Below are positions 2-47,052 of a DNA stretch of 47,230 nt, piece after piece (position 1 is the stretch's first letter; every line of letters starts with the position of its first letter). The DNA comes from Campylobacterales bacterium (GTDB taxonomy: Bacteria; Campylobacterota; Campylobacteria; Campylobacterales; QNZT01), in NCBI GenBank assembly GCA_027084135.1, contig JALWLO010000074.1:1-47230 (forward strand). Reading direction: 5' to 3'. The notes beneath the pieces were generated by a model that worked only from the letters and a program-made list of their open reading frames with translations, did no database searches and was not told the DNA's origin. The translations under genes and the position numbers were made by a program.

Positions 2-1129
2 CCAAAAGAGGAAGAGGGTGGATTAAATAGGGTTTTAAGGATAGATATTAACTCCTGGAGATATAGCAGTATCAAGACAAAAGGATCAAATCCACACTCG
101 ATCGATAGAGCCGGAGATAGTGATAGGTTTTATGTCAGAACGCAAGGGTCTAAAAGCTTTGATGTCGTAAATTTCAAGACTAGAGAAGTTAAAACCATAG
201 ATCTTTACGGTGATACACCAAGATCGATAGGTGCTACAAACCTAAAGTATCATATACAACTCCTACCTGCAAAATATCGCCCTTTGATATACATTATTGA
301 TACGGATAACGACAAGATCATAGGTAGAGTAGGAGATGACTTCAACTTCTACGAATCAACCGCAAACGGTCACACCGGATGGCTAGATAGTAAACACTTT
401 GTATTGGTCGATAGAGTCAATAAAAGGCTATCGGTATATGAAGTGATAGATCACGGCGAATCATTGGATTTTGAGAAGACTCAGACAATAGATATGCAAA
501 CTTCATATCACGGCATTATGAGAGTAGAAAATGTTAAAAATAGTGAAGATTTATATACATTTTACGGCATGGGCGAGGGAGATATTGAAGATGGTATTCC
601 TCCATTTGTTGTGAAATTCAAGTTTGACCCGACTCATGGAAAACTTAAAAAAGTGGCAAAAACATATCTTAGATTTAGTACTAAAAAAGTAAACGGTATC
701 ACCCCACAAACACATCACGCCGGTATCAGTCCAAACGGTGTAGAACTATTTGTACCAACTACCGATGGGAAGCTATATATATTGGATAGATTTTCTATGA
801 AGATCAAAAAGATCTTAAAAGTCGGGTTGGGAGCTGGTCATGTTTACTTCTCAAAGTCTAAAAATTTAGCGATAGTATCAAACCACGATGCACCGTTTGT
901 ATCTGTTATAGATTTGGATAGTTTTGAGCTTATTAAGAATATCAAAATCACTGATAAAAAGTTTGAGAAACACCAACTTCAACCTCATACATCATACATC
1001 AGTCGTACAGGCAGATACTTTTATACCTTTTCAACAGCCGATGGAGACTTTTTAAGGATCGATCTTGATAGATTGGAGGTCAAAGATAGACTCCATGTCG
1101 GAGGAGCTCCTGAACAGGGGCACAGCTAA
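2..1129 (+). CDS. YncE/YVTN-like beta-propeller protein, 5'-truncated by the window edge
   Basis: Frame is open from position 2 (PKEEEGGLNRVLRID...) into ORF 284..1129; repeated blade-like segments (IYIIDTDNDKII, LYILDRFSMKIKKILKVG, VSVIDLDSFELIKNI). Confidence 0.65.
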   Translation, partial: PKEEEGGLNRVLRIDINSWRYSSIKTKGSNPHSIDRAGDSDRFYVRTQGSKSFDVVNFKTREVKTIDLYGDTPRSIGATNLKYHIQLLPAKYRPLIYIIDTDNDKIIGRVGDDFNFYESTANGHTGWLDSKHFVLVDRVNKRLSVYEVIDHGESLDFEKTQTIDMQTSYHGIMRVENVKNSEDLYTFYGMGEGDIEDGIPPFVVKFKFDPTHGKLKKVAKTYLRFSTKKVNGITPQTHHAGISPNGVELFVPTTDGKLYILDRFSMKIKKILKVGLGAGHVYFSKSKNLAIVSNHDAPFVSVIDLDSFELIKNIKITDKKFEKHQLQPHTSYISRTGRYFYTFSTADGDFLRIDLDRLEVKDRLHVGGAPEQGHS

Positions 1130-1141
1130 GAGGATACTCTC

Positions 1142-2479
1142 TTAGCAGATAAAGTACTCTCCGTCAAAGCTAACGAGAGAGTAGTTTCTATCATGCCCTA
1201 AACTCTCCTTTAATCCTTCGATGGACAAAAAGGATAGACTATCCGCACCGATATACTCTCTTATCTCTTCATCACTCATGTTGGCACTGATAAGCTCTTC
1301 ATAACTTGGCGTATCTATACCGTATTTGCACGGGTGCTTGATCTGTGGAGAAGCTAGCTTCATATGCACCTCTTTGGCGCCGGCATCTTTGAGCATCTTC
1401 ACGATCTGCTTAGATGTCGTTCCTCTCACAAGTGAGTCATCTATGATCACCACCCTTTTGCCCTTGATTACCTCTTTGATGGGTGAGAGTTTAAGCCTTA
1501 CCTTGAGATCCCTCATCTCTTGGATCGGCTCTATAAAGGTTCTACCGACATAGTGATTTCGCACGATACCGTTCTCAAAAGGTATGCCGCTCTCTCTCGC
1601 ATACCCCAAAGCCGCCGCTACACCGCTATCTGGTACCGGGAGTACGATATCGGCTTCGACAGGATTTTCTTGTGCGAGTCTTTTTCCCATCTCCAGTCTT
1701 TTTTCATAAACATTTTTACCGTCTATCACGCTATCGGGTCTTGCAAAGTAGATATACTCAAAGGCACAGGGTCTGGGTTCACTCTCATATAGTTGGATAG
1801 ACTCCGGTTCCTTACCCTTCTCAAATATCAGCATCTCACCCGGTCTTACATCTCGTACAAAATCAGCTCCGACAAGATCAAAGGCACAAGTCTCGCTCGC
1901 TACGATATATCCGCCGTTTGGAAATTTTCCAAGAGACAAAGGTCTAACCCCATATTTATCTCGTATAGCAAACATCTTTTTTCTACTCTGTATCACAAAG
2001 CAGTAGGCACCCTTGATATCCTCTAGTGCCTCTATGATCCGCTCTTGAAGGGTCGGCTTTTGGCTTCGTGCGATAAGATGGATGAGATTTTCGGTATCCA
2101 TCTCCGACTGGAAAATGGCACCCTCATTGATAAGTTTTTCTCTTATCTCATTTTTATTGATGAGATTTCCGTTATGGGCGATAGAAATTTGACCAAGTTT
2201 ATAGTTTGCCATGATAGGCTGAGCATCTACTACCGATTTGCTACCAGCCGTTGAGTATCTATTGTGTCCTATCGCCATAGAGCCTTTGAGATAATCAAAG
2301 TTCTCCTCATCCATAAAGACTTCAGTTACAAGCCCTTTTCTCTTTCTCGTTCTGATCGTACTACCGTCACTTGCACTGATACCGGTTGCCTCTTGACCGC
2401 GATGCTGCATCGCAAAAAGCGCATAATATGCCACTTTGGAAGCATTTTTTACATTAAATACACCCACTACCGCGCACAT
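1142..2479 (-). CDS. purF: amidophosphoribosyltransferase
   Basis: N-terminal catalytic Cys, QHRGQEA, GHNRYST, CAFEYIYFARPDS, PRPP motif VIIDDSLVRGTT. Confidence 0.98.
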   Translation of the reverse strand: MCAVVGVFNVKNASKVAYYALFAMQHRGQEATGISASDGSTIRTRKRKGLVTEVFMDEENFDYLKGSMAIGHNRYSTAGSKSVVDAQPIMANYKLGQISIAHNGNLINKNEIREKLINEGAIFQSEMDTENLIHLIARSQKPTLQERIIEALEDIKGAYCFVIQSRKKMFAIRDKYGVRPLSLGKFPNGGYIVASETCAFDLVGADFVRDVRPGEMLIFEKGKEPESIQLYESEPRPCAFEYIYFARPDSVIDGKNVYEKRLEMGKRLAQENPVEADIVLPVPDSGVAAALGYARESGIPFENGIVRNHYVGRTFIEPIQEMRDLKVRLKLSPIKEVIKGKRVVIIDDSLVRGTTSKQIVKMLKDAGAKEVHMKLASPQIKHPCKYGIDTPSYEELISANMSDEEIREYIGADSLSFLSIEGLKESLGHDRNYSLVSFDGEYFIC

Positions 2480-2480
2480 C

Positions 2481-3256: not shown

Positions 3257-4183
3257 TTAATGTGATTTTGCTACAACTTGAAGTGCCGCTATCGCCCCAT
3301 CACTTGCGGCACAAACCACCTGTTTCGGTGCCTCTATGCGTATATCTCCCGCCGCATATAAGCCCTCGACAGAGGTATTCATCGATAGATCGACTATCAC
3401 CTCTCCCCACTCATTTACCTCGCACAAGAAGCTACCGTCCTCCTGTTTGAGTACTTGATTTTGCACATCCATACCTACAAAGATAAAGACTCCGGGTACC
3501 TCTATGTGCCTCTTGGTACCCTCTTTGGAGATGATATCCACACCGGTAACTCCACTCTCATCACCCAATATCTCATCCACTACGCTATTTAGTACTAACT
3601 CTATTTTGCTATTTGCTTTTACTCTCTCAACCGTATGCGGTGAAGCTCTAAAGCTATCTCTCCTGTGTACCAGATAGACTTTTGAGCAGATATTTGCCAG
3701 ATAGAGAGCCTCCTCCAGTGCGGTATCACCTCCGCCTATCACCACAACTTCTCTATCTTTATAGAAAAATCCGTCGCAAGTAGCGCAGTTGCTTACCCCT
3801 CTTCCATAGTAGGTATCTTCCCCTTTGATACCCGCTCTTTTTGGTTTGCTTCCGGTAGCGACGATCACACTTTTTGCTTCTATTTTGTCGCCGCTCGCTA
3901 AGTGAAGTAAAAAGTGCTCACCCTCTTTGGAAACTCGTTTTACTTCACTCATCTCATGCTTCAAACCAAAACGCATACACTGCTTTGGCCAAGGCTCCAT
4001 CAGTTCCATACCCGTTAAGGGCGCTTCAAAACCGGGATAGTTCTCAATCTCCGAACTTTGTGTGATCTGACCGCCCGGAAGCCCCATCTCATACATCACT
4101 ACATCTTTTAAACCGCCTCTTGTGGCATAAAGCCCTGCTGTGAGTCCTGCCGGTCCTCCGCCGATGATCGCTAAATCAAGCAT
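3257..4183 (-). CDS. trxB: thioredoxin reductase
   Basis: [26 protein letters not shown]. Confidence 0.97.
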
Positions 4184-4645: not shown

Positions 4646-4663
4646 AGGGGCAAAGAACCCCTT
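4646..4663 (-). terminator. hairpin downstream of trxA
   Basis: AAGGGG-CAAAGAA-CCCCTT; on the minus strand followed by GTTTTTT. Confidence 0.5.
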
Positions 4664-4673
4664 AGTACTACCG

Positions 4674-4991: not shown

Positions 4992-5096
4992 AGTATCTCC
5001 AAATTCATTATTTTCACTATTCACCATTTGTGAACATGGTATTATACCCAAACTTGATTAATACAATATTAATATATTTTTTAAGCTAGTACTAAG

Positions 5097-6406: not shown

Positions 6407-6841
6407 ATGATAAATCTTTTAAAATACCTTTTCCTGCTAATCCTCTTGAATACCACCCTATCGTCTAAATCGCTCGACAAAAGATCACTCGCTTTGGAGA
6501 TGTTAAATACAATGAATAAAAACGGCTATGTTCAAAAGATGATGGATGGGGAGATCTACCAAAGGGTTTCACAAAACCCTCTCCTTGCGGCAAATAGCAA
6601 AAAGGTGATCCGAGTGCTCAAAAAGCATCTCTCATTTAACAAACTCAAACCAAAACTTGCAGCCTACTATGCCAAAGAGCTTAGTACTAACGAGATAAGG
6701 GCATTTACAAAGTTTTGCGCTACAAAAGAGGGGCAGAAGATACTGCTTAAGTTTCCAAAGCTGATCAACATAGGTTCAAAACTCGCGGAGATAGAGCTAC
6801 AAAAGCACTATAAAGAGCTTATCAGTGAAGTGATGAAGTAG
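6407..6841 (+). CDS. exported protein, DUF2059-like
   Basis: Signal peptide; YAKELSTNEIRAFTKFCATKEGQKIL matches the DUF2059 pattern; AAGGAG RBS. Confidence 0.7.
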   Translation: MINLLKYLFLLILLNTTLSSKSLDKRSLALEMLNTMNKNGYVQKMMDGEIYQRVSQNPLLAANSKKVIRVLKKHLSFNKLKPKLAAYYAKELSTNEIRAFTKFCATKEGQKILLKFPKLINIGSKLAEIELQKHYKELISEVMK

Positions 6842-6843
6842 GG

Positions 6844-8197: not shown

Positions 8198-8241
8198 TTA
8201 ATAGACACCACTTATTATCTATCAAATTTCATTCTCTAAAA

Positions 8242-8394: not shown

Positions 8395-9324
8395 ATGAAA
8401 AAAATTGCCCTTTTGCTTTTTATCACGCTTTTACCTCTACTTGGCGAAAATAGCTTGATATCTAAACTGGATCGTTTTAGAGGAGAGTGCTGCAACTGGT
8501 ACTATAAGACTTTACAAAATATTGACGCTTATTTTGGAAAAACATCACAAAGCGAATATCAAACGATTTTAGAAAAAAACAGCATCAAAATCGTACTCTC
8601 GAACAGATATAGTACGATTGAAAAGTATAAACCCTATATCTATTTTAAAACCAACATTACACTCCCAAATATCAACAAAAGACTCGAGATGAGTATCAAC
8701 CGACAAAACCGAAGAAGTTACCAAAATAGATCATTTAGTACTAACGAAAATCAAAACCTGAGAGATCAAGACCTCCACTTCGGGCTTGGATATCGTTTTT
8801 TCAAGAAAAACGATCTAACCCTCAAACTCAAAGTCGCCACCCACATCGCAAAACCGCACCATATTTATCTGCGACTTAGCACCTCAAAGGACGTCGATTT
8901 TGAGAAAGGATCGGCACTCTTTGAAAGTCGTATCTATAAGTATCTATTTCAAAATCGTCTAATAGTATCAAACTCTATGAACTTTACCAGATATCTCTCT
9001 CCCCATTTTAGACTCTTTTTTGACAATAGCCTAAACTGGAAAAACGAGGATATCAACTGGGAGTATGATCACTCTTTAGAGCTGATACAAAAAGTATCGA
9101 CAAGAGATATACTCAATTACGATCTCTCTTATGGAGCCGATAATCTAAAAGGTCTCTATACAAGAAAGTATAACTCACTCAAATTTGGGCTTAAACACTT
9201 CTTTAGAGAGTGGCTCTATATTGAGCCCTCTATCCGGTTCTTACATAGCAGAGAGCATGATTTTGCAAATGAGAGGGTTTATCGATTTGATATCGGTTTT
9301 GTCGTCTCCAGATATAGGCGTTAA
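8395..9324 (+). CDS. exported hypothetical protein, probable outer-membrane beta-barrel
   Basis: Signal peptide MKKIALLLF at 8395; amphipathic aromatic-rich strands; the ORF-track extension to 8128 overlaps tRNAs. Confidence 0.6.
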   Translation: MKKIALLLFITLLPLLGENSLISKLDRFRGECCNWYYKTLQNIDAYFGKTSQSEYQTILEKNSIKIVLSNRYSTIEKYKPYIYFKTNITLPNINKRLEMSINRQNRRSYQNRSFSTNENQNLRDQDLHFGLGYRFFKKNDLTLKLKVATHIAKPHHIYLRLSTSKDVDFEKGSALFESRIYKYLFQNRLIVSNSMNFTRYLSPHFRLFFDNSLNWKNEDINWEYDHSLELIQKVSTRDILNYDLSYGADNLKGLYTRKYNSLKFGLKHFFREWLYIEPSIRFLHSREHDFANERVYRFDIGFVVSRYRR

Positions 9325-10374: not shown

Positions 10375-10905
10375 ATGTTTAAAAAATTTATCTTAGTACT
10401 AATGATACTTTCCACTTCACTTTTTGCACAAAACTTAAACTTAGAGCTAAAAAGTACGATAAACAAAAGATACCATCTCCATACCACGGATGAAGGCATC
10501 AAGATCGATGAGTGGAAAAGAGGCGGGATACTGCTTGTTTTTTTCGGTACGCACTGTCCACCCTGCAAAGCTGAGATACCTAAACTCAAAGAGATACAGA
10601 GACATAGAAACGGGCTTTTGGTATTTGCTATACAGGTTGAGCAGGGTGTCAGCGATGAAGAGGTTACAAGATTTGTCAAAATGCACCATATCAACTATCC
10701 GGTCGTAAACTATACTTATGCGATGAGTTTGATACTATTTATGAGGGATAATCTCGACTGGGGTGGGGAGATACCTACGATGTATCTCTTTGCAAAAGAT
10801 GGAAGCTATATCAAAACATATGTCGGCATCACCTCAAAGAGGAGGATACTTGAGGATTTCAAACACTCTAAAAAAGAAGTACTAATATCTATATCTCAAA
10901 TATAG
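10375..10905 (+). CDS. TlpA/ResA-family thiol-disulfide oxidoreductase
   Basis: Signal peptide; FFGTHCPPCKAEIP; IPTMYLF. Confidence 0.85.
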   Translation: MFKKFILVLMILSTSLFAQNLNLELKSTINKRYHLHTTDEGIKIDEWKRGGILLVFFGTHCPPCKAEIPKLKEIQRHRNGLLVFAIQVEQGVSDEEVTRFVKMHHINYPVVNYTYAMSLILFMRDNLDWGGEIPTMYLFAKDGSYIKTYVGITSKRRILEDFKHSKKEVLISISQI

Positions 10906-12473: not shown

Positions 12474-12600
12474 ATTAAAGTTAGTAAAAGATAATTTTTG
12501 TTATATATTATAGGTTTTATATAATGCGATGTAGATTTTATGGGTTATAAAAAGAAAAAGCCCCATATTTGGGACTTTTAGAAGTTTTCAGTACCTAGTA

Positions 12601-13125
12601 CTAAGCGTTAGCTGCCTCTTTAGCTGCGTTGATAGCCTCTTCATAATCAGGCTCTTGAGTAATCTCAGGAACAACTTGTTTATAAGTTACTTTTCCATCT
12701 TTTCCGATGACAAAGATCACTCTTGCAAGAACTCCTGCAAGTGGTCCGTCTGCTAAAAGAACACCGTATGCATTACCAAAATCTTTATTTCTAAAGTCGC
12801 TACATACTTTGATATTATCTACTCCTGCGGCTCCACACCATCTAGCAGCAGCAAACGGTAGATCCATAGATACAGTCACTACTTCAACACCATCAAGTTT
12901 AGTCGCCTCTTCATTAAATCTTCTAGTCTCAGCATCACACACACCTGTATCCAGTGACGGAACCGCTACAACAAGTTGAACTTTCCCTTCTCCACCGATC
13001 TTCTCATCTTGAAGCATCGGGTTACAGTTTACGACTGTTACCTCCGGAGCTTTATCTCCTACATTTACCTCATTTCCTGCTAAGTTGCATACCGTGTCGT
13101 TTTTAAATGTAACTGTTGTTGCCAT
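12601..13125 (-). CDS. tpx: thiol peroxidase
   Basis: VPSLDTGVCDAETRRFN, SMDLPFAAARWC, EPDYE. Confidence 0.96.
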   Translation of the reverse strand: MATTVTFKNDTVCNLAGNEVNVGDKAPEVTVVNCNPMLQDEKIGGEGKVQLVVAVPSLDTGVCDAETRRFNEEATKLDGVEVVTVSMDLPFAAARWCGAAGVDNIKVCSDFRNKDFGNAYGVLLADGPLAGVLARVIFVIGKDGKVTYKQVVPEITQEPDYEEAINAAKEAANA

Positions 13126-13254: not shown

Positions 13255-13737
13255 ATGGAGCTAAATATACCAAAATATATAAGTATCATTTATATACTGA
13301 TACTCTCTATCACACTAGGAGCATCACTCTATGCAGGAGCTGTCGTTGCACCGACTATCTTTCATAGTGAGACATTTTTAGGTGGAGAAATCCTCAGTCA
13401 CTACCAAGAGGGTTTACTGATGACCCAAAACTTTATCAAGTTATCTTATCTTGTGGATCTTACGGTTTTGGCTGTCATTTTTTACGAAGGGTATCGGTTT
13501 AAAAGTTTTGAGAGAGATAGTATCGCGCTTTTGAGTGCGGTTCTTGTAGTACTAAGCGGTCTTCTCTTTGCGCACTACTATATACCGTGGATCTTGGAGA
13601 TGCAGACAAAAGGTGCTGAGGCAACTCAAAGTAAAATATTTGAAAATGCACATTTTGCCAGCGAACTCGACTTTAAACTCTTTAGCATAGCACTCTTAGT
13701 ACTTATCGTAAGAAACCTCTATCGATATCCAAGATAG
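13255..13737 (+). CDS. DUF4149-like membrane protein
   Basis: Four hydrophobic segments; VVAPTIF and FENAHFASE motifs. Confidence 0.75.
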   Translation: MELNIPKYISIIYILILSITLGASLYAGAVVAPTIFHSETFLGGEILSHYQEGLLMTQNFIKLSYLVDLTVLAVIFYEGYRFKSFERDSIALLSAVLVVLSGLLFAHYYIPWILEMQTKGAEATQSKIFENAHFASELDFKLFSIALLVLIVRNLYRYPR

Positions 13738-15404: not shown

Positions 15405-16391
15405 TTACTCACTTTTTGGTTTTGCGATGAGTTCGCAGTGGGTAGTAAATCTGCCTCTTTTATAGGCTTCCACACCGTATCTACCGATCATCACGGCATT
15501 ATCTGAGCAATATTTTAGCTCAGCTAAGTGAAGATTGGTGCTATATTTGTCAGTGAGCGTTTTGATCTTCTCTCGTAGATACAGATTTGCGCTTGCACCC
15601 CCAACGATAGCAAAATCCCTTATCTCTCTCTCTTTGAAGACTCTTCTTAATTTATGCAACAGATGCTCCACCGCAACTCTCTGAAAAGATGCGGCGATAT
15701 CGGCTCTATCTTGATCACTTATCTTCTCTCCAAGCTCTGCTATAGCTAGTCGAACCTGATTTTTCAGACCGGAGTATGAGAAGGCTAACTTCGGTGAATT
15801 TTGAAGCGGCACGGTAAAGTCAAACCTCTTCTCATCCCCCTCTCTTGCCAACTCCTCTATGATAGGACCGCCGGGATATCCAAGTCCCAGCATCTTCGCC
15901 ACTTTATCGAAACTCTCACCGAAACTATCATCCATACTCTTTGCTATCACCCTAAAGTCGTCAAACCCTTTGGCATCTATCACCTCCGTATGTCCACCGG
16001 AGACCAAAAGTACCGTCATGGGAAAAACCTCCTCCCTCTCTATAAAGAGAGAGTAGATATGCCCATAGAGGTGATTGACCGATATGAGTGGAAGTTTTAG
16101 AGAGATGGAGAGAGCCTTTGCCATCATCACCCCCTCCAAAAGTGTAACAGATAGCCCAGGGTGAGTCGTCACGGCGATTGCCTTTAAGTGGGGGAAAAAC
16201 TCCTTAGTACTAGAGAGGATATCGGGCAGTGCTTTGGCATGAAGCCTTGCCGCAAGCTCCGGTACTACGCCGCCATACTTGGAGTGTTCCAACTCTTGGG
16301 AGATCTTTTTGTGAAAAAGCACATCTTTGGTATCTATCTTCGTTATCGCAATGGAGCTATCGTCACAACTGCTCTCTATGCTTAGTATCAT
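15405..16391 (-). CDS. tsaD: tRNA N6-threonylcarbamoyltransferase
   Basis: [44 protein letters not shown]. Confidence 0.97.
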
Positions 16392-16400: not shown

Positions 16401-18089
16401 TTAGAAGTAGTGAAAGAGGTTTATTTGAAAGCGCCTCTTCTCTTTTTCGCCCTCTATTTTACCGCTTTGGAGCTTGAAGTTTATCGCATTGTCTCTATCA
16501 ACCTTATGAGTATAAAAGCCTTCTGCACGATAGTACCCTACTCCGCCATCCTCTACCCCTCTCTCAAAGTGGGCACCCACCTTTTCGTTGGATCGGTTTG
16601 CTACAAAGCCGCCTCGAAGAGCTGTTTGAAAGTGAATACCGGCTCTTAGATGTAGAGACGGCGTCGCTATAAGATAGTAGAATAATCGATCCTCCCCAAA
16701 ACTCACTCCAACCTTAGTACTAAGTTCAAAATGCTCCCTATCTCTAAAGCGATCTAACCCAAACCTCACTCCCCATGAAATCGGTTTCAATATCTCATCC
16801 CTCAAAGCGTAAGAGCTAATATCCACAAAACTAAATCTCTCCAGCTTTACCAAATCTTTATCGTATCTAAACAGCAGGCGAAAGAAGTCTATATATGCCC
16901 CCGCTTTAAATCCCTCATCCAGATCATAGCTATCATGAAAAGCGGGTTTATAACCAAAGAATATCTCCCCGCTATCCTCTACACCAATATCCACTCTTGA
17001 ACTTTTGTGCCCTAGTACCGGATCTGTCGGGGTCTTAGTACTAGGCTTTGGAACCTTTGGAAGTTTGCTTCTCTTTTTGCTTAGCCGAAGCAGCTCTTTG
17101 ATATAGCTTTTTTTATCGATCTCTCTCTCTTGCCTCTTTAACTGCAGTTTTGCAACCTCAAGCTCCATCTCAATCGCCTCTTTCTGCTCCCCTTTAAGAG
17201 TCTCTTTCATCTCTAAAAGGGCTCTTATTTTTGTCGCTTTTGAGGCTCTAAAGCGTGAATTTGCTATAAAGCCCGCCTCTTTTACGACTCTGATCGTATC
17301 TATCGGTATCGCTTTATAGCTAAATCGATCGACTAGATCACTATCTCTAGCAATCTCTAACATCCATAAAAGATTATAAGAGCAGTTGCGCGTAAAGAAG
17401 TAGTAGTCCGAGTAGCTGTTTCGTATCTCATACATATGGGTAAGAAGTTTTTCGATCTCCGTCGGAGTAAGGTTTAGTTCATACTCCCAAATATCTCTTT
17501 TTTCCATATTGCTATACTCTTTGATCTTTTGATAGTATGGGAGTGCGGAGTATCTGCCTTTATACTTTCCAAATAGTCCTTTATATGCAAAGATGATGCC
17601 GTTTTTGTCATTGCTATCAGCGAAAAAATTGATCGCGTTTGACATCAACATCAAACCCTTTTTATCGGTGATAGCTAAAAATGTATGACCATACATAGAA
17701 GCCGGAGAGTTGATATTTGCCGTTGGAAAGATCAGATAGGCTCTCCTTGGTGCATAGGCTTTGAGTATCTCATCAAGCTCTTTACAGCTACGGTACGGCA
17801 CCCTTTTTACGATATCGGGTCTATGTTTGTATATCCACTTCACTCTTGCGGGAAATCGACAAAATATCCTATCATCGCTACTAAGAATAGCCCTTATCGT
17901 AGCGTTTAACTCTTTTAAGGGATCGGTTTTCCCACTCTTTGAGAGAAAGAAGTTTGGATCACCGATCTCACTCTCTCCATCTCTATAGTGCAGTAATCTT
18001 AGCCAATCTCTATCTATATCTTTATCAGTCAATGTAAAGGAGTAGGAGTATATAGATAAGAGGGCAAGTAGTATAACCCCCTTAAACAT
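16401..18089 (-). CDS. DUF4105 (Lnb N-terminal-like) protein with a C-terminal beta-barrel-like region
   Basis: WLRLLHY, CRFPAR, SPASMYGHTF, YYFFTRNCSY; ends in FHYF; adjacent to DUF3015. Confidence 0.8.
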   Translation of the reverse strand: MFKGVILLALLSIYSYSFTLTDKDIDRDWLRLLHYRDGESEIGDPNFFLSKSGKTDPLKELNATIRAILSSDDRIFCRFPARVKWIYKHRPDIVKRVPYRSCKELDEILKAYAPRRAYLIFPTANINSPASMYGHTFLAITDKKGLMLMSNAINFFADSNDKNGIIFAYKGLFGKYKGRYSALPYYQKIKEYSNMEKRDIWEYELNLTPTEIEKLLTHMYEIRNSYSDYYFFTRNCSYNLLWMLEIARDSDLVDRFSYKAIPIDTIRVVKEAGFIANSRFRASKATKIRALLEMKETLKGEQKEAIEMELEVAKLQLKRQEREIDKKSYIKELLRLSKKRSKLPKVPKPSTKTPTDPVLGHKSSRVDIGVEDSGEIFFGYKPAFHDSYDLDEGFKAGAYIDFFRLLFRYDKDLVKLERFSFVDISSYALRDEILKPISWGVRFGLDRFRDREHFELSTKVGVSFGEDRLFYYLIATPSLHLRAGIHFQTALRGGFVANRSNEKVGAHFERGVEDGGVGYYRAEGFYTHKVDRDNAINFKLQSGKIEGEKEKRRFQINLFHYF

Positions 18090-18092: not shown

Positions 18093-18533
18093 CTATAATG
18101 TAGAAGCGATACCGTCTATCACAGAGGCAGACGATACATTTTCATTTGCGTAGATTTTTGTGTAGTTTGCTTTGAGTTTCGCTTTTGCCGTTGCTTTATC
18201 TTTTACATTCATAAGAGACAAAAGCGTATCAAGACTCTCACCCTCACCCGAAGCCACCTCAACCGCAAGCGTGTCCATATTGTCCGCTACAAACTTTTGT
18301 GCTTTCTCATTCATCACAAGTTTATACGGTTTTGTACAGTTGAGTGAACCGCTTGTGATACCAAAAGTTTGGTTACCGAATGTTCCGTTAGAAGTAGCCG
18401 CCAAAACTTGTGTTGCTACACTGTTTTGCTCAGGGATAAGCATACTTCCCAAACCGCAACCGGTATTGCTATTTCCTGCCGCAAAGGCAGAAGAAGCGAT
18501 TAGAAAAGTGCTTAGTACTAAAACTTTTTTCAT
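18093..18533 (-). CDS. DUF3015 family protein
   Basis: GCGLGS, NQTFGITSGSLNC, GEGESLDTL. Confidence 0.88.
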   Translation of the reverse strand: MKKVLVLSTFLIASSAFAAGNSNTGCGLGSMLIPEQNSVATQVLAATSNGTFGNQTFGITSGSLNCTKPYKLVMNEKAQKFVADNMDTLAVEVASGEGESLDTLLSLMNVKDKATAKAKLKANYTKIYANENVSSASVIDGIASTL

Positions 18534-20196: not shown

Positions 20197-20760
20197 CTAT
20201 TTTGTAATTGCCCAAATCAACCTATGCATATCTTTGAGAAAGAGTGTTTTATCTGAAGTGTGCGGCATCCTCGAGAGGATTCCCCAAGTTGATAGGATAA
20301 AAAACTCCGCCCACTCTTTTGGCTGCTCCTCTCTTATCTCCCCCCTTTCTATACCATACTTAAGTACTTTTTCGAGTTTATTTGCAAGCCTTTTGAACTC
20401 ATCTTCACAAGCCATAGCGATATCGATATCTTGCGAAGCCATCTCAAACATCAATCGATGCAAAGGGCAACCGTACTTTAAAAGCATCTCGTTTTTGCTC
20501 ATCTTTTTTACGGTATGTTCTATGATAGCAAGCGCATCTTCACCCTCTCTTATCTCAAAATCGAAAAACTCCCTCACTTTCGGTGCCAACCGCTCCTCTA
20601 TCATCGCTAGTACTAACGCTTTTTTAGAGGGGAAGTAGTGATAGAGTGAGCCTCTCGGCAGTTTCGCCTTTTTGAGTATCCTCGTCGTCGATGCGGCAGC
20701 ATACCCGTAGATATAAACCTCTTCAAATGTCGCATCCAGTATCTTGTTTCTACTGCTCAT
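20197..20760 (-). CDS. TetR/AcrR family regulator
   Basis: HTH KAKLPRGSLYHYFPSKKAL; GCP motif; start moved to MSSRNKIL. Confidence 0.92.
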   Translation of the reverse strand: MSSRNKILDATFEEVYIYGYAAASTTRILKKAKLPRGSLYHYFPSKKALVLAMIEERLAPKVREFFDFEIREGEDALAIIEHTVKKMSKNEMLLKYGCPLHRLMFEMASQDIDIAMACEDEFKRLANKLEKVLKYGIERGEIREEQPKEWAEFFILSTWGILSRMPHTSDKTLFLKDMHRLIWAITK

Positions 20761-28718: not shown

Positions 28719-28760
28719 AACCCCTCCTAGATTGATTTAGTACTAAGATAGTAGCATAAA

Positions 28761-28864: not shown

Positions 28865-30010
28865 ATGAAAGCTTACCTCACTATTATATTTGTACTTATA
28901 TTCTCACTATTTATTGGATGCCAAAGAACAAGTAATAGTCAAGATAGCCATACCCTATCCACCAACTCATACAACCATAGCGGCGGCGAAGTGCTCTTTC
29001 ATATCATCTCCAAAACCAATACACTCAGCGATGAAAACGGCGGTTATAAAGATAGCGGTCACTACAGCATCATCTATCAAGCAAAAAGCAAGCGCTACGA
29101 TATGCCTATTGAAGGGTTGAACAACGATGCGTTCTACACGCTTTATGAAAACGGCAAAAGAGAGGAGGAGACCCTCTATCATGTCGCAGCGGATCCCAAA
29201 AATGTCTCCAATAAGATTCTACTCCTTTTAGATTTTTCAGGCTCTATCGTGAACGACTGCGACAAATCTGACGCTAGTACTAATCCTAGCAATCTATGTT
29301 ATCAGATCGTAAACGCTTCACAAAAATTTATCGATAAGGTGCTTAGCAAAAATCAGAGCATGAGTATCTACTACTTCAACTCCCAAAAGATCATCCTCCC
29401 ACTCTCGAACAATGCCCAGCCTATAAATGATGCCACTCTTTTAAAATCATCACTATCAAAACTCTATGATGCAAACTGGAGAGATGAGCATCTCAAAGGG
29501 TATAGCGGTACCAATCTCTACGGAGCGGTAAGTGACGCCATAGAGGTAGTAAGGAGGTGGTTTCCTGAATTATATGGAAAAGAGGATAAAGTCGATATCG
29601 CCAATAGAAAGCGCTACGACTTTGCAACGCTTGTAATCTTTACCGACGGACACGATAACGCCCATACCACTTCACTGGAGAGCATCTTAAACAAGATAGA
29701 AAAGTTTAGTAAAAATTACTACTACTTTACCATCGGTCTCGGCAGTGATGTCGATAATAGCGCTTTGAAACAGATAGGTAAAGATGGATATTTTCGTGCC
29801 AATGAGATAGAGGAGCTAGACGGAAAGTTTGAAAATCTCGGCGAGAGGATCAGTAGCTTTGCAAACAGCTTTTATAGACTCGACTTCTGCCCTGTGAGTA
29901 AAAATTCGTTAGTACTAAAGGTAAAACTTAATGATGATAGGGGATATTACGGAGAGATGAAGGAGAGGATAGATCTCATCTCCAAAGATTTTAGATGCGA
30001 TCTCTATTAA
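28865..30010 (+). CDS. vWA-domain lipoprotein
   Basis: Lipobox FIGC; MIDAS LLLDFSGSI; TNLYGA; IFTDG; TIGLG. Confidence 0.85.
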   Translation: MKAYLTIIFVLIFSLFIGCQRTSNSQDSHTLSTNSYNHSGGEVLFHIISKTNTLSDENGGYKDSGHYSIIYQAKSKRYDMPIEGLNNDAFYTLYENGKREEETLYHVAADPKNVSNKILLLLDFSGSIVNDCDKSDASTNPSNLCYQIVNASQKFIDKVLSKNQSMSIYYFNSQKIILPLSNNAQPINDATLLKSSLSKLYDANWRDEHLKGYSGTNLYGAVSDAIEVVRRWFPELYGKEDKVDIANRKRYDFATLVIFTDGHDNAHTTSLESILNKIEKFSKNYYYFTIGLGSDVDNSALKQIGKDGYFRANEIEELDGKFENLGERISSFANSFYRLDFCPVSKNSLVLKVKLNDDRGYYGEMKERIDLISKDFRCDLY

Positions 30011-32057: not shown

Positions 32058-32231
32058 ATTTCATCCTTTCTATCAACAAAAATAGCTTAGTACTAGATCG
32101 GTTTTAAAAAAATTTTTTTTAACTTTGAAACGCTTTTTGAGATATGAAAAACAGGACAATTATTGTTCAAAAATTAAGCAATGAGAAGAGTTGGATTTTC
32201 ATAACATAAAATGAGGGAAGAAAAACCTCCC

Positions 32232-35851: not shown

Positions 35852-36838
35852 ATGAGATATATTTCTTTAGTACTAGCTACCTTGCTGCTCATAGGATGTG
35901 GCGGCGGGAGTAGCAAAATCGACAAGGCAAAAGAGAAAGTCCAAAGTCTCATAGATGAAAATATCGGTTCGCAATCAAATGATATGAGTGGGCAAACAGA
36001 AACTACAAAAGCTACACAACCATCTACTACGGATGATCAAAATAGCACTACGCCAACCGATGAACAAAACGGTAGTAATATGCGACAAAGTGACACTACC
36101 AAGAGCGATACGGACAACACCCATAGTGACAACGACACCTCCTCGCAAAGTAGTACCGATGAACCCGCTTCAGGTAACAATAATAACCATACTGCCGACA
36201 CCAATAAAACAGATGATCAAAAGAGTAGTACTAACGATAATCAAAGTAGTGAAAATAACAGTTCATCAGAGAGTAGTACTAATAATAGCATAGACAATCA
36301 ACACAGCGATACAAATACTACCATAAAAAAGATCGTTGATAGACACAACTACTATAGAAACCTTCTCTATCACGATAGCAATCTCACTTGGGACGATGAG
36401 ATCGCAAAAAGTGCCCAAGAGTGGGCTAACTATCTCGCAGAACACTACACCGTTCAAGCAAGAGATAGAGGATACTCTCCACACGATAATCAAAACTTCG
36501 ACTATGGTGAAAATATCGCTTGGGGTATCCCTTCGATGGATTTTGTCACCGATGAGCCGATAGAGGATATCGATACTCCGAGTGACACGATTCCAGACGG
36601 AGCAGTAGATGCATGGGCAAGTGAAAAGGCTTACTATGATTATGAGACAAATAGTCAAAAAGCCGGTTATGAAGATAAAGTCATCGGACACTATACGCAA
36701 CTTGTCTGGAAAGAGAGTACTAAGGTCGGGTGTGCAAAGGCAAAGTCACAAACGGATCTAGGTGGCGAATGGGTTGTATGCAGATACTATAAACCGGGAA
36801 ATATGACGATAAACGGAGTAAAACAGAAGCCCTATTGA
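35852..36838 (+). CDS. CAP/SCP (PR-1-like) domain lipoprotein with a low-complexity S/T/D/N linker
   Basis: Lipobox LIGC; HNYYR, GENIAW, GHYTQLVWK, VCRYYKPGN. Confidence 0.92.
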   Translation: MRYISLVLATLLLIGCGGGSSKIDKAKEKVQSLIDENIGSQSNDMSGQTETTKATQPSTTDDQNSTTPTDEQNGSNMRQSDTTKSDTDNTHSDNDTSSQSSTDEPASGNNNNHTADTNKTDDQKSSTNDNQSSENNSSSESSTNNSIDNQHSDTNTTIKKIVDRHNYYRNLLYHDSNLTWDDEIAKSAQEWANYLAEHYTVQARDRGYSPHDNQNFDYGENIAWGIPSMDFVTDEPIEDIDTPSDTIPDGAVDAWASEKAYYDYETNSQKAGYEDKVIGHYTQLVWKESTKVGCAKAKSQTDLGGEWVVCRYYKPGNMTINGVKQKPY

Positions 36839-38336: not shown

Positions 38337-39981
38337 ACCGAACCATCTCCCCTCGTTTTAATCTTCCTATTATATCTTGAATTTTCCTACTATAAAAGCT
38401 CTTTTGCTCTAGAGTCAAATCTTTTTTAAATCTCAGCTTGTCCATCAGTGAAGCGTAGTGTCTTCTGAGCATAAATCTTATCTGCTCAAATAGCTCCTCT
38501 TTGTCATACTCTTTGAGATCCTCTCTCACCATGATACCGATGATCGCGCTATCTTCAGTCTCATCTCCTATCAACAACTCAAACTCTCTTTTGTGTGTTT
38601 TGAACACATCGATCGAGAGATACTCCAACACCTCATCCAAAAATTGCGGTTTAGCAAGAAGCGTTTTGATGATATTGAGCTCCGCGATATCCTCTTGGTT
38701 CTGTACTATCGGTTTGGATAGACGGCTACTCTTAGTACTAGATATTTTGATATGGCTAGTACTAATATCCAATAAGATCGCTAAAAAATCCCTATACTCA
38801 TCTTGGATAAGCGGCGCAAGGGTATGGAGATATTTGAGAGACTCATTGAGCGCTTTTTGCTTCTGCAGGGCATCATTGAGATCAAACTTACTTACGATAA
38901 ACTCCAACGCATACTCGATAAAAGGCTTTGAGGCGTTGAACTTCGCCTTTAGCTCATCCTCTCTCCCCTCTTTTACCATATCCGCCGGATCCATCCCCTC
39001 ATCAAATATCACAACCCCGCCTCTCATCTCCTTTTGGCTCAAAAGCTTTGCCGCCTTAAATGCCGCCTCCTTTCCGGCACTATCTCCGTCATAGGCAACG
39101 ATCACTTCCGGATCACCCCGTTTGATAAGCGGAACGACCTTTTCGGTAAGTGCCGTTCCAAGCGTCGCCACGGCATTTCTCCAACCGGCTTGATGGAGCA
39201 TCACCACATCCAAATTCCCCTCTACAATGATGATGCGCCCCTTTTTCATGATGCTATCTTTAGCTTTATGATAGCCAAAAAGGAGTGTTGATTTGTCAAA
39301 TATCCTACTTTGCGGGGAGTTGATATATTTTCCGATATCATTTCGTTGGGTGAGGATCCTCCCGCCAAAACCGACTATCTTACCGCTTGGACTAAAGATA
39401 GGAAAGGTGATACGATTGCTAAATCTCGCATATACCCTGCCGTCATCGCCTTTTGCCAAGATCCCCAGCTCCAACCCCTCGCTAAGTTTTACACCTCTAT
39501 TTCTCAAAAAATCCAAACTTTTATAGGAAGCAGGTGCGAAACCTATCTCAAACTTTTCGATGGAAGATTCATATACCCCTCGATTTAGCAAGTAGTGCTT
39601 CGCCTCAGGGTTGTTTTGCAACTCCTTTTTGAAAAAGTTGTTCAACTCCTCTAAGATAGAGGCTTTTTGATAGATAGAATCACTGTTTTGTGTTCTTTTT
39701 AGTGTTACTCCATATTCACTTGCCAGCTTCTCTATCGCTTCGGGATAGGTGAGATTTTCATACTCCATCACGAACTTGATACTATCGCCGCCGATACCGC
39801 AGCCAAAACACTTAAAGAGCTGTTTTGCGGGACTGACCGTAAAAGATGGAGATTTCTCATCATGAAAGGGGCAGTTTGCCTTATAGTTGGCTCCCGCTTT
39901 TTTAAGCTCTATATACCTGCTAACAACATCGACAATATCAAGTCTCGCTTTGAGCTGTTCTATGGACTCTTGTTCTATCAT
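38314..39981 (-). CDS. dnaG: DNA primase
   Basis: CPFH...CFGC zinc finger; GFGGR; KYINSP; TOPRIM VEGNLD and YDGDSAG. Confidence 0.98.
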   Translation of the reverse strand: MIEQESIEQLKARLDIVDVVSRYIELKKAGANYKANCPFHDEKSPSFTVSPAKQLFKCFGCGIGGDSIKFVMEYENLTYPEAIEKLASEYGVTLKRTQNSDSIYQKASILEELNNFFKKELQNNPEAKHYLLNRGVYESSIEKFEIGFAPASYKSLDFLRNRGVKLSEGLELGILAKGDDGRVYARFSNRITFPIFSPSGKIVGFGGRILTQRNDIGKYINSPQSRIFDKSTLLFGYHKAKDSIMKKGRIIIVEGNLDVVMLHQAGWRNAVATLGTALTEKVVPLIKRGDPEVIVAYDGDSAGKEAAFKAAKLLSQKEMRGGVVIFDEGMDPADMVKEGREDELKAKFNASKPFIEYALEFIVSKFDLNDALQKQKALNESLKYLHTLAPLIQDEYRDFLAILLDISTSHIKISSTKSSRLSKPIVQNQEDIAELNIIKTLLAKPQFLDEVLEYLSIDVFKTHKREFELLIGDETEDSAIIGIMVREDLKEYDKEELFEQIRFMLRRHYASLMDKLRFKKDLTLEQKSFYSRKIQDIIGRLKRGEMVRYEVFSTL

Positions 39982-40224: not shown

Positions 40225-41439
40225 ATGCCAATCGACATCTATGATGCTCTCCAAAAAATTGATGAGATCTCCTTAACCCCTCCATCCATCCTCGTTCCGA
40301 TAGAAGAGAGTATCACAAAAGTTGCCGCAGAGGATCTCACAGCGACACTCCCTTTGCCAAACTTTGATAACTCCGCTATGGACGGCTACGGGATAAGAGG
40401 ATCATCTAAAAGCTACAAAATTAGAGAAACCATACTTGCAGGTCAAGAGAAAGATCTTGTACTAAGTGACGGCGAGTGTGTCGCGATCATGACAGGTGCA
40501 AGGGTACCAAAGAGTGTAGAGCGTATCATCCCAAAAGAGATGACAAGTAAAAAAAGCGATAGCATTAGCATCGATCAATTGCTTCCTTTAGGTGCAAATA
40601 TCAGAAAGAAGGGTGAAGATATCGATATCGGTGAGAGTATCATCAAAAAGGGCGAAATCGTCAACTCCTCTCATATCGCGCTACTGGCTTCTCAAGGTAT
40701 CACCCATATCAAAGTCTACGCCACTCCTAGAGTCGCTATCTTCTCTTCAGGAGATGAGCTAAAGATGCACTATGAGAAGCTTGAGGGAGAGGCGGATCTC
40801 TATAACTCCAATACCCCCTACTTGGTAGCTAGGGCAAATGAACTTGGAGCTCAAGCCTTTTTTCTCGGTAGAGCGGATGACAACCTAGACTCTCTCAAAT
40901 CCAAAATCAAAGAGGCGCTAAGTTATGACCTTATCATCACAAGCGGCGGAGTGAGTGTGGGTGAAGCGGACTTCATGAAAGAGGCGTTTAAAGAGATGGG
41001 CTTGGAGAGCTTCTTTGATAAAGTAGCTATAAAACCGGGTAAACCGACCCACTTTGGACGCATAGGCGCTACCCTAGTACTAAATCTGCCGGGCAACCCT
41101 TTAGCAAGCGCGATGAACTTTGAGATCTTCGGTAAATTTATCATCAACAAACTCAGAGGCTTATCGGCACCTTACCACTCCTATATCCTCACCAAAAGTG
41201 CCTCTAATATCATCTCCAAAAAACCGGTCGATAGCGTGATAGGGGGATATTTTGACGGTAAGAGCTTCATGCTTCCGGCTAAAAAGGTCTTTCCGGGAAG
41301 TGTCAATGCACTCAATCACTGCAACTGCATCATTGTAATCGATAAAAGTACCGATGAGATAGATGTTGGTGAAGAGCTAAAGATATTACCTATAAGATGG
41401 GGATTTTTCAGTAAGCACTTTGTGGAGTTTAAGTCTTAG
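40225..41439 (+). CDS. moeA: molybdopterin molybdenumtransferase
   Basis: NSAMDGYG, IMTGA, SGGVSVG, IKPGKP, LPGNP. Confidence 0.95.
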   Translation: MPIDIYDALQKIDEISLTPPSILVPIEESITKVAAEDLTATLPLPNFDNSAMDGYGIRGSSKSYKIRETILAGQEKDLVLSDGECVAIMTGARVPKSVERIIPKEMTSKKSDSISIDQLLPLGANIRKKGEDIDIGESIIKKGEIVNSSHIALLASQGITHIKVYATPRVAIFSSGDELKMHYEKLEGEADLYNSNTPYLVARANELGAQAFFLGRADDNLDSLKSKIKEALSYDLIITSGGVSVGEADFMKEAFKEMGLESFFDKVAIKPGKPTHFGRIGATLVLNLPGNPLASAMNFEIFGKFIINKLRGLSAPYHSYILTKSASNIISKKPVDSVIGGYFDGKSFMLPAKKVFPGSVNALNHCNCIIVIDKSTDEIDVGEELKILPIRWGFFSKHFVEFKS

Positions 41440-43533: not shown

Positions 43534-44261
43534 CTCCCCTCCTCATTATCCCAAAGTCTTATATGCAGTCTATCACAAAAAAGATAACCGTTTTTTATAC
43601 AGATTTTTGCCGTGGCTCTATCATGTTTACAAAGTTCACGGCTTGTAGCACCCATCGGCATACAGTACACCGGTATATTTGGCGCCAGTGAGGCGATCTC
43701 TCTTATCTCCTCTTCATCACTCCTTTTTGAGACTACAAACTTAAAAAATGACCTCTTAGTACTAAGAGCGATAGAGGCTATCGCTTTGGGATTTACCCTT
43801 TTTGCGTAAGTTTCACCGCTATTGTTGAGCTTCACACTCATCGAAAAGACCACTTCCCTATAAATGGGAAAGCGCTCAAAATCTATCTCTATCGTGGCAT
43901 TGGTCTCGATGGTGATAGTAAAGCCTCTCTCTATATAGTGAGCGAGTGCATCCAACAAGATAGGATTTTGGTAGTGGATAAGGGGTTCACCACCGGTTAT
44001 GACGATATGCGGCTTAAACGCTAAGTTCTCCAAATAGTTCTCGATAGTGGGAATCAAACTCTCGACCCTCTCCCATCTATCCCCAAACTTCTCCTCATCG
44101 ACCGCTCTGACTGAATCACAGCCGATAGCTCCTTCATATCTGACCCCAAAGCCTTTGCAATTAAGATTGCATCCGCCGAGTCTGACAAAGATAGAGGGTG
44201 TACCGGCAAATCTTCCCTCTCCCTGAAAAGAGTAGAAGCTCTCAACAAGCGGCAGACTCAT
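43530..44261 (-). CDS. queE: 7-carboxy-7-deazaguanine synthase
   Basis: SFQGEG, CNLNC...CDS, ITGGEP, IETN, RLH. Confidence 0.92.
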
Positions 44262-45223: not shown

Positions 45224-45296
45224 TTTAAACCTATTAAAACAATTTTTTCATCTGTCGATATTATATCCAAGAAATTAAAAATAAAGGAGAGTTGTT

Positions 45297-45806
45297 ATGA
45301 GTGTGCCGATGCCGACCCCACATGAACGGGTTATGAGAGAAGAGGACTTTATCGTATCTAAAACTGATACAAAAGGTAGGATAACCTATTGTAATAAGAT
45401 ATTTATGGAGATGGCTGCGATGAGTGAGGATCAGCTTCTAGGTAAACCGCACAATATCGTTCGCCACCCAGATATGCCTAGGGTAGTCTTTAAGCTACTT
45501 TGGGAGTATGTGCAAAGCGGTAAGGAGATCTTTGCCTATGTGAAAAATCTATCAGCTGACGGAGCCTACTACTGGGTCTATGCCAATGTAACACCCTCCT
45601 ATGACAATAACGGCAACATCATAGGCTACTACTCGGTGAGGATCAAACCGAAAGATTCGGCACTTCAGGTGATCAAGCCGCTCTATGAAAAGCTGCTGGA
45701 GATAGAGAGGGGTTCAGGTATGGAGGCATCTTATAAAGAGTTGATGAGTATATTAGAGAGTAAAGGAGTAACCTATGATGAGTTTATTATCAGTATCCAA
45801 AAGTAG
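45297..45806 (+). CDS. stand-alone Aer-type PAS protein (CetB-like)
   Basis: [38 protein letters not shown]. Confidence 0.9.
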
Positions 45807-47052
45807 TGCTAAAAGTGACTTAGTTAAAAAGATAGATGAGGTTGTGGCATGTGCGGCAAAAGGGGAGTTAGAACCAAGGATAACCGGAATAAACCCAAAT
45901 GATCCGCTAGCACCTATAGCATGGAATATCAATAATATGCTCGATCAAGTTGAGGCTGTTATGCGTGGTTCAGCTACAGCAATAGAAAAAGCGAGTCAAG
46001 GGGACAATAGTAGAACAGTATTTTGTAGCGGCTTGAAGGGAGGTTTTAGACAAAATTGTCAGAGTGTCGCAAAGGCTGTACACACTATGCAAGAGGGACA
46101 TGAAGCACAACTAAAATCCCAACTTGCTCTTGAGTTTGAAAAGATAAGCGGAGGAATTAAAAAATCGATATCGACACTACAACATGATCTAGAAAGTGCG
46201 ATAGAGAGCATCAATGAAGTCGCCGACCTCTCTAAAGATACGGCAGATAAGTCAAACGAGTCACTTAGTACTACGATGGAACTTAGTGAAAAACTAAATC
46301 ATCTCATTGAACTCATCAACAATGTCACCCTCTCTATCTCGTCGCTTACCGAGAGAACAAGTGAGATCAGTCAAGTGGTAAATCTCATCAAAGATATCGC
46401 CGATCAAACCAATCTCCTCGCACTAAATGCAGCTATCGAGGCGGCAAGAGCGGGTGAACACGGCAGAGGATTTGCAGTCGTTGCCGATGAAGTGAGAAAA
46501 CTTGCCGAGAGAACACAAAAAGCAACCAGTGAGATATCTATCACGATCCAAACGCTTCAACAAGAGACAAACCAGATCCAAAGTGATGCAAGTGAGGTAA
46601 ATGAGATCGCCACCACTTCCGGTGAGACGGTTGAGCATTTTGCTTCAGTACTTCAAGAGTTTAATAAAAATACAAATGAGGCATCGGAGCTTGCTCAAAA
46701 AACAAAACTCAAAAACTTTTTAACACTGGTCAAAGCTGATCATATCGTCTTTAAGGCAAACGCTTACAATGCAATCCTACATGATACCGGAAATAAAACC
46801 CCTAGACTTAGTGAAAAAGAGTGTAGATTTGGTAAGTGGTATAACGGTGAGGGAAGAGATGTCTTTGGCAACACAAAAGTGTTTAAAGATATCGAAGCCC
46901 CACATAGAGAAGTACACCAATATGCAAACCAAAACATAGAGATAACCGACCAAGAGCTCAAACCTGAAATGGTACCGCAACTTAGAGAGAACTTTGAAAA
47001 GATGGAAAAAGCTAGTGAAAAACTCTTTGATATACTTAATGATCTTGTTTAA
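45775..47052 (+). CDS. soluble chemoreceptor: HAMP-like plus MCP signalling plus CZB domain
   Basis: MCP tip motif; [21 protein letters not shown]; no TM helix visible. Confidence 0.9.

Follow-up and report, generated by a model that had tools for sequence, protein, structure and literature searches.

The genome of a hydrothermal-vent Campylobacterales bacterium contains a real, very strong and lineage-private highly iterated palindrome, the octamer TAGTACTA, of the same kind as HIP1 of cyanobacteria and the DNA uptake sequences (DUS) and uptake signal sequences (USS) of Neisseriaceae and Pasteurellaceae, respectively. It was recognised in a single contig of 47,230 nt (JALWLO010000074.1, C74 of assembly G000), the whole of which is referred to as the window, and it recurs at 1,214 sites of the assembly, equivalent to one per 1.63 kb (~0.6 per kb), where it is the most abundant of all 8-mers. 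A preliminary description of the window had postulated a HIP1-like palindrome iterated genome-wide, with at least 29 exact copies in the window; exactly 29 were counted (positions 676 to 46273), and the genome-wide claim is borne out by the 1,214 sites and by the codon-aware null models described below. Its estimates of ~38% GC and ~1.5 copies expected by chance have to be corrected: the window has a GC content of 0.40-0.43, and 100 dinucleotide-preserving shuffles gave a mean of 0.75 copies (maximum 5), none of them reaching 29.

The assembly is of the metagenome type, 92% complete, and comprises 1,982,976 bases in 144 contigs. On both strands, 2,428 occurrences of TAGTACTA were counted versus 92.7 expected under a third-order Markov model (26-fold), and the next most over-represented 8-mers were all shifted versions of the same word. 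The extended 10-mer TTAGTACTAA was present at 564 genome sites. Based on crude longest-open-reading-frame (ORF) gene calls (1,879 genes, 90% coding), 81% of the sites were assigned to coding sequences (CDS), 184 sites were intergenic and 45 lay on gene boundaries; the motif density was 0.55 per kb in coding versus 0.93 per kb in spacer DNA. The 985 coding sites were read either as NTA-GTA-CTA (573 sites, Leu-Val-Leu) or as NNT-AGT-ACT-ANN (412 sites, x-Ser-Thr-x), with none in the frame that would give a stop codon (frame 0). The enrichment persisted against codon-aware nulls: 982 CDS copies were found versus 63.6 ± 8 (maximum 79) in 30 synonymous-codon shuffles (15-fold) and versus 28.1 in codon-order shuffles. 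Leu-Val-Leu tripeptides were spelled TTAGTACTA in 395 of 676 cases versus 5.2 expected from codon usage; each outer variant of this spelling occurred 11-61 times, and no central variant was among the top six. Global codon usage in G000 was negligibly distorted. An accumulation in the 5' decile of CDS (176 copies versus ~90 per decile) probably derives from the longest-ORF start calls and was not used.

The symmetrised logo gave the consensus YTAGTACTAR, with weak preferences at positions -2 and -3 and background composition farther out. As no flank information was present beyond ±3, YTAGTACTAR is the whole unit rather than a segment of some longer repeat. In the window, the previously reported flank counts were all reproduced: the full TTAGTACTAA was present in 12 of the 29 copies, 28 had a 5' T or a 3' A, none had a 5' A or a 3' T, and the sole copy with neither preferred flank was located at 27042 (CTAGTACTAG). 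Genome-wide, the flank rule is not absolute, with T, C, G and A occupying position -1 at frequencies of 0.68, 0.18, 0.08 and 0.06, respectively. One-off variants were enriched solely at the outer positions 1 and 2 of the word (up to 3.0-4.9-fold), whereas those at core positions 3-6, the central GTAC, occurred at 0.5-1.7 times expectation. Of 6,043 GTAC tetramers in the genome, 3,516 had neither TA flank. The view that the word is neither a protein motif nor a mobile element holds up, as judged from the codon-aware null, the lack of conserved flanks and the origin of the copies by substitution (see below).

The word is restricted to one species among the genomes scanned across the phylum. Copies of the 10-mer numbered 0-11 in 40 relatives (2, 0 and 7 in three species of the same genus) versus 564 here, 0-11 in each of the family's remaining 31 species and 0-20 in 400 genomes across the phylum, giving a maximum of 20 in a total of 435 distinct other genomes. 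The motif is thus not phylum-wide, unlike HIP1 in its phylum, and the sharing and conservation across a clade that characterise HIP1 were not observed. A 400-kb sample of the same-genus genome G003 contained nine TAGTACTA sites and no hyperabundant word of its own (top observed/expected ratio 4.2). Since G003 and G001 are only ~73% identical to the window at the nucleotide level, the word arose on a long branch. Literature searches on the word, on uptake sequences in vent Campylobacterota and on iterated or hyperabundant palindromes retrieved no description of it, as the preliminary description had supposed for the phylum; palindromes of other taxa may be given in the supplements to Elhai 2015 and Xu 2018, to which these searches did not extend. 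Among the matches listed, those on HIP were all cyanobacterial, and those on the word itself were primers and unrelated operators.

A confinement to one assembly, which would have argued against the finding, does not apply. Public runs from two studies, recorded as hydrothermal-vent metagenome, contain the window: run X1 is identical to it and probably its source, and run X2 from the other study yielded contigs that differ by 0.2-2.6% (98-99% identical) over the window. Record 9 of X2 covers site 27042 with a single difference, at 27128, and this copy is intact; at the other seven X2-covered sites no change was seen among the ~40 of 778 differences listed, which is not evidence of conservation. 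Contigs of four runs join position 37142 of the window to 37203 via 16 other letters that replace 60 nt, and in the adjoining bins at 35005-37005 the summed depth was very high. Together, these observations suggest a population variant beside a segment common to other organisms.

The origin of the copies was followed by comparison with G003. Among the genes that have an orthologue in G003, 122 motif sites were located, and 111 of these were aligned gap-free; the word was present at one of the 111 orthologous G003 sites, the commonest distance was 4-5 mismatches of 8, and the nucleotide identity at motif sites was 0.465 versus a background of 0.681. An insertion within 6 residues was observed at 7.7% of 117 sites (control 1.9%), ~92% had none, and two-residue insertions occurred just twice. 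These alignments indicate that the copies arose by substitution, not by insertion. A transposon-excision footprint, in which a duplicated TA and the element ends would add 6 nt, was rejected on the basis of the two two-residue insertions in 117 sites and the 92% of sites without insertion. Likewise, miniature inverted-repeat transposable elements and repetitive extragenic palindromes were dismissed in view of the missing flank information beyond ±3, the 81% of sites in CDS and the 92% without a nearby insertion.

The substitutions have left an imprint on the encoded proteins. Full amino acid conservation versus G003 was observed at 12 of 68 Leu-Val-Leu-frame sites (0.18) and at 2 of 43 Ser-Thr-frame sites (0.05), with control values of 0.44 and 0.37 for windows of three and four residues, respectively, and 0.37 for other hydrophobic triplets. 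The observed/expected ratio of LVL was 1.93 in G000 versus 0.74 in G003, that of ST was 1.25 versus 0.97, and FST (2.53) and STK (2.44) were among the top tripeptides of G000. The motif density amounted to 0.22 per kb in the 108 genes with ≥75% identity to G003 versus 0.54-0.64 per kb below 75%. Spacer copies crowded close behind stop codons, with 33 of the 137 distances on the stop side falling below 10 nt, and of the 620 TAG stops among 1,879 called stops (33%), 50 were the word's own TAG. Taken together, the conservation, tripeptide, density, insertion and stop-codon results demonstrate a directional substitution process at the DNA level that is opposed by protein constraint and has affected ~1,200 sites, in genes and spacers alike, in one species. 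In 384 orthologue pairs, TAG stops numbered 129 in G000 and 105 in G003.

The copies were spaced in a Poisson-like manner: their index of dispersion was 1.01 versus 1.00 ± 0.08 in simulations on the real contig set, and 33 gaps of ≥5 kb were counted versus 34.2 ± 4.7 simulated. No contig of ≥5 kb was significantly motif-poor, and no excess was found at contig ends (20 copies within 100 nt versus 17.6 expected). The one departure from Poisson concerned gaps below 100 nt (134 versus 71.8 ± 7.8 simulated), and the centres of close pairs were preferentially 12 bp (14 pairs) or 13 bp (8 pairs) apart versus ~0.7 pairs expected per distance. Pairs of the 10-mer at 12-13 bp were located at 25 places in G000 (e.g. 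C75:46379, C87:852 and C143:57139). All eight 13-bp pairs lay in spacers or on gene boundaries and the 12-bp pairs mostly in-frame within genes; several close pairs have the unit TTAGTACTAACT in common and resemble tandem duplications of one 12-nt unit. A scan of a wider collection for closely paired 10-mers retrieved at least 103 stretches, which among the matches listed were scattered single pairs or local arrays, and a viral scan gave 37 stretches and no dispersed carrier. Viral and metagenome-assembled genome (MAG) contigs with 21-bp-spaced arrays had raised the reading of the word as an iteron, which was discarded as the array at L157:5055-5638 (TTAGTACTAA, 21-nt spacing) is a coding repeat of 7 codons within an ORF of 634 aa and separate from the dispersed palindrome. 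Other phage or MAG contigs with 21-nt TTAGTACTAA arrays were L150, L145, L133, L123, L131 and L071; L157 was the only one inspected in detail.

Among the known systems, HIP1 (GCGATCGC) is likewise a perfect 8-bp palindrome and the top octamer, at ~20-100 times expectation, with a copy every ~1-2 kb both inside and outside coding DNA. Its abundance is not explained by codon or amino acid usage, and its one-off variants fall at outer positions, so that the statistics of the word described here match those of HIP1 in form. The word differs from HIP1 in being AT-rich with a GTAC core, in occurring in one species and not in a phylum, and in the failure to find an orphan methyltransferase of the C5 or Dam type; with the word missing from all relatives as an iterated element, its conservation between orthologues cannot be demonstrated. 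A tens-of-kb periodicity is reported for HIP1; in the 144-contig assembly, the word was spaced in a Poisson-like manner at short range. DUS and USS have copy numbers and densities resembling those of TAGTACTA: ~10 informative bp and around a thousand copies per 2 Mb, in a lineage-specific manner and denser in spacers. Findlay & Redfield 2009 describe that uptake sequences double the encoded tripeptides and favour poorly conserved genes and residues; the interaction of the word with the proteome matches these signatures, as both the ~2-fold tripeptide excess and the preference for poorly conserved genes and residues were found here. DUS and USS are asymmetric and often form inverted pairs in terminators, whereas the word is palindromic and not concentrated in terminator-type spacers; they are reported to be missing from recently acquired genes, and no depletion in atypical genes was observed here. 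No receptor candidate was found, and an uptake role of the word is putative. Campylobacter jejuni reportedly marks self DNA for transformation by methylated RAATTY, which is also a short palindromic word, in the same phylum according to the preliminary description, and is used with a secretin/pilus-type apparatus; the apparatus of G000 is of this type, and no ComB10 was found. RAATTY differs in being 6 bp long, degenerate and frequent by chance, so that no genomic accumulation is needed, and no matching methyltransferase was found in G000.

Avoidance in the host, as typical of restriction targets, does not apply to TAGTACTA, which is enriched. Other short palindromes were scarce: the observed/expected ratio of ACGT was 0.06 in G000 and 0.00 in the G003 sample, that of GGCC was 0.08 and 0.11, respectively, and GTCGAC, GTATAC, GAATTC and GTTAAC were also strongly depleted. 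This scarcity suggests a long-standing restriction pressure common to the genus.

Three DNA methyltransferases were found in G000, and a motif sweep of all ORFs added none: a type I HsdM, a type III-like Mod of 603 aa located at the edge of a contig, and a 528-aa SPPY type II enzyme on contig C19, whose gene overlaps that of a 252-aa TdeIII-family endonuclease by 4 nt. This type II restriction-modification operon (C19:17579-19921; L174:3580-5921) contains no motif copy in 2.3 kb; the methyltransferase has the FxGxG motif early and SPPY late, as in N4-cytosine enzymes, to which its weak PDB matches also pointed; these matches offered no clue to its specificity. Pfam describes the TdeIII-family endonuclease as GGNCC-type. 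Homologs of the C19 methyltransferase were present in four of the 40 relatives, which have 0-3 copies of the 10-mer (G005, 80% identity in a partial match; G038, G025 and G040, 58-63%), and the enzyme was therefore rejected as a sufficient driver. As regards the GTAC/AGTACT methyltransferase proposed earlier, one type II enzyme with an SPPY motif was found, and no lineage-specific writer was identified. Matches to the Eco57I family were PrmC and a small RNA or protein methyltransferase and were discarded as DNA methyltransferases. A C5 methyltransferase, a Dam-type enzyme, Vsr and MutL were not found in family searches of the 92% complete assembly (no match to PF00145 and PF02086). A 970-aa MutS-family protein with domains I, III and V and no Pfam nuclease match (C19:5497-8406; L181:1498-4410) was present in 30 of the 40 relatives; its G003 copy is only 60% identical, and those of other genera reach 70-73%. 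With respect to natural transformation, ComEC and DprA were identified together with two secretin clusters, which resemble those of an MSHA/type IV pilus and of a type II secretion system, respectively; both clusters are syntenic with G003, and ComB10 was not found in G000. The one very divergent gene, in the MSHA/type IV pilus-like cluster on C85, was considered as a DNA reader and rejected, as it encodes a 262-aa TPR protein of the pilus-assembly type (C85:2223-3011; L185) with 36.5% identity to G003; its neighbours (MshE-type ATPase, secretin, PilO-like) are 56-83% identical.

We tentatively favour the reading that the word is linked to transformation and has spread by molecular drive. The (Y)TAGTACTA(R) word would serve as the self-recognition sequence for natural transformation, and a reader of symmetric, dimeric build that acts in DNA uptake or recombination, and that may recognise a methylated form of the word, would favour fragments that contain it. 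Because of this proposed preference, mutations improving near-matches would be over-transmitted upon uptake or recombination of conspecific DNA, a molecular drive as has been proposed for DUS/USS and is now discussed for HIP1. The central GTAC would be least tolerated by the reader and the outer T/A positions softer, and the word would accumulate to ~0.6 per kb wherever Leu-Val-Leu, x-Ser-Thr-x or a TAG stop is tolerated. Recent work (a preprint on HIP1 and transformation; Rodriguez-Cruz 2026) reports that HIP1 raises transformation in a methylation-dependent way. ComEC, DprA and the two secretin clusters also speak for this reading, as does the precedent, within the phylum, of uptake selective for sequence or methylation in C. 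jejuni (RAATTY). It is the combination of the HIP1-like form, the DUS/USS-like effects on the proteome and this link between HIP1 and transformation that favours a transformation-linked function, and the Poisson-like spacing fits an unconstrained drive better than a function that needs even coverage. A more specific version, in which a palindromic uptake or self tag arose de novo in one vent species, in a phylum from which no such tag is known, with a dimeric receptor and possibly N4-methylcytosine placed in GTAC by the C19 enzyme, appears rather unlikely; such a tag would be a young, lineage-private counterpart of DUS/USS and HIP1. Several observations weigh against a role in transformation. 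Known uptake sequences are asymmetric, whereas TAGTACTA is a perfect palindrome. Relative to base composition, the 10-mer was represented 108-, 5.2- and 0.76-fold at 0, 1 and 2 mismatches, a steeper profile than that of Bakkali's DUES (145- and 10-fold). Convergent, terminator-type spacers were not enriched (0.90 per kb versus 1.17 in tandem spacers), and the density across deciles of codon-usage atypicality was flat (0.48-0.65 per kb), with no depletion in atypical genes. Finally, the competence genes are common to motif-free relatives, and no lineage-specific reader or writer was identified.

Of the three mechanisms suggested in the preliminary description, an uptake tag is thus the one to which we cautiously incline, and methylation-linked repair has been weakened. 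In the ratchet described by Elhai, a methyltransferase would mark the GTAC/AGTACT core, and methyl-directed repair or nicking would preferentially fix extensions to the full palindrome. The restriction of enriched one-off variants to outer positions is as expected from such a process, and Elhai 2015 likewise places HIP1 deviants there; moreover, the only C on each strand of the word lies in GTAC, in a genome with an SPPY type II methyltransferase in operon with its endonuclease. The usual partners of the ratchet, however, were not among the genes found, the C19 methyltransferase has homologs in four motif-free relatives and a partner endonuclease of a GGNCC-type family, and the MutS-family protein is shared with most relatives. 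Furthermore, the motif sites are 4-5 of 8 positions away from their G003 orthologues, far more than one or two steps from a 4-6-bp core, and GTAC shows no over-representation outside the word of a sort that would mark a core, so that we regard the ratchet as unlikely. Quite unlikely as well is a binding site under selection for an abundant intracellular homodimeric protein with a function in nucleoid organisation, chromosome maintenance or self-marking against a nuclease or defence system. The perfect dyad symmetry with a ~5-bp half-site is typical of dimeric DNA binders, the 14 pairs at 12 bp and 8 at 13 bp would fit cooperative binding, and the synonymous third position at the centre of Leu-Val-Leu copies is held tighter than the outer ones (395 perfect spellings versus 11-61 per outer variant). 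No candidate binder was found, however; strong selection would be needed at ~1,200 redundant sites, changing amino acids at hundreds of them, the spacing is random rather than regular, and several of the close pairs resemble tandem duplications, which need no binding. We know of no architectural site that reaches ~1,200 copies.

The Chi sites described so far lack symmetry and are oriented in parallel with replication. As a Chi-like recombination signal, the word would be read by a RecBCD/AddAB-type enzyme and owe its abundance to the protection and repair of the cell's own DNA. Chi, too, is a short and frequent oligomer, tied to recombination: in Bakkali 2007, it ranks among the commonest 8-mers of E. 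coli, 5.7-fold over-represented and 1.5-fold at one mismatch, and the HIP1 preprint suggests a Chi-like component. The few-fold enrichment of Chi (5.7-fold versus 21-26-fold for TAGTACTA) and the fact that a palindrome cannot be polar, as Chi is, render this explanation improbable. Still less credence is given to a neutral by-product of context-specific mutational bias or to an assembly or binning artefact. The confinement to one species and the 144-contig metagenome-type assembly would be compatible with these; yet a bias that sets 8-10 positions in a symmetric fashion would be required, one-off variants of the core showed no enrichment, the density is uniform without a contig-end effect, reading frames are preserved (frame 0 in 0 of 985 coding sites), and contigs of an independent study hold the same DNA.

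The individual copies in the window were located by exact search, assigned to CDS and frame by comparison with ORFs, and their genes named by NCBIfam and Pfam matches. As previously claimed, 22 copies lay inside CDS in both usable, stop-free frames; one formed a stop codon and six were intergenic. The full TTAGTACTAA occurs in the Ser-Thr frame at 676..683 in CDS 284-1129 (+), at 6682..6689 in CDS 6407-6841 (+) and at 8736..8743 in CDS 8128-9324 (+), and in the Leu-Val-Leu frame at 3590..3597 in trxB (3257-4183, -) and at 10394..10401 in CDS 10375-10905 (+). Further Leu-Val-Leu-frame copies are located at 18513..18520 in CDS 18093-18533 (-), 20608..20615 in CDS 20197-20787 (-), 29910..29917 in CDS 28865-30010 (+), 35868..35875 in CDS 35852-36838 (+) and 41075..41082 in moeA (40225-41439, +), and GTAGTACTAA at 13547..13554 in CDS 13255-13737 (+) encodes Val-Val-Leu. 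The Ser-Thr frame is used at 16205..16212 in tsaD (15405-16391, -), at 16715..16722 and 17036..17043 in a Lnb_N-domain gene (16401-18089, -), at 29275..29282 in CDS 28865-30010 (+), at 36226..36233 and 36274..36281 in CDS 35852-36838 (+), at 38733..38740 in dnaG (38314-39981, -), at 43757..43764 in CDS 43530-44261 (-) and at 46266..46273 in an MCP/CZB chemoreceptor gene (45775-47052, +). A second dnaG copy (38757..38764) lies 24 nt from the first, and the CTAGTACTAG copy at 27042..27049 is part of a DUF898 gene (25868-27499, +). The copy at 12596..12603 supplies, on the minus strand, the TAG stop of tpx (12601-13125, -), in agreement with the initial assignment. Intergenic copies are TTAGTACTAC at 4663..4670, CTAGTACTAA at 5087..5094 just past the stop of an OmpA-family gene (5097-6341, -), a pair 17 nt apart at 24618..24625 and 24635..24642 between the ORFs 23547-24587 (-) and 24808-25833 (+), a copy at 28738..28745, and one at 32088..32095 between a methyl-accepting chemotaxis protein (MCP) gene (30030-32057, -) and ilvD (32232-33932, -). 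The gene names trxB, tsaD, moeA and tpx were confirmed by NCBIfam and dnaG by Pfam; the name queE, given earlier to the ORF at 43530-44261, could not be verified, as this ORF had no NCBIfam match at E ≤ 1e-20.

To our knowledge, very few lineages carry hyperabundant short words, namely the cyanobacteria (HIP1) and two families of proteobacteria (DUS/USS). How such words originate is a long-standing question, since within each of these groups the word is old and common to the members. In the present case, one species of another phylum carries the word and its 31 sister species do not, which provides clean before-and-after genomes, and the cost can be measured: amino acids have changed at hundreds of sites, the encoded tripeptides have doubled in frequency, and 50 stop codons are formed by the word. 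The case also tests the methylation-repair model of HIP, as a C5 methyltransferase, MutL and Vsr, its usual partners, were not found. In practical terms, the word is a near-perfect marker for binning contigs of this organism in vent metagenomes, and, if an uptake function applies, it would offer a handle for the genetic manipulation of vent Campylobacterota. Should the word be a self tag that arose de novo, the species would represent a natural experiment on the birth of such a tag and on the extent to which it can overwrite proteins.

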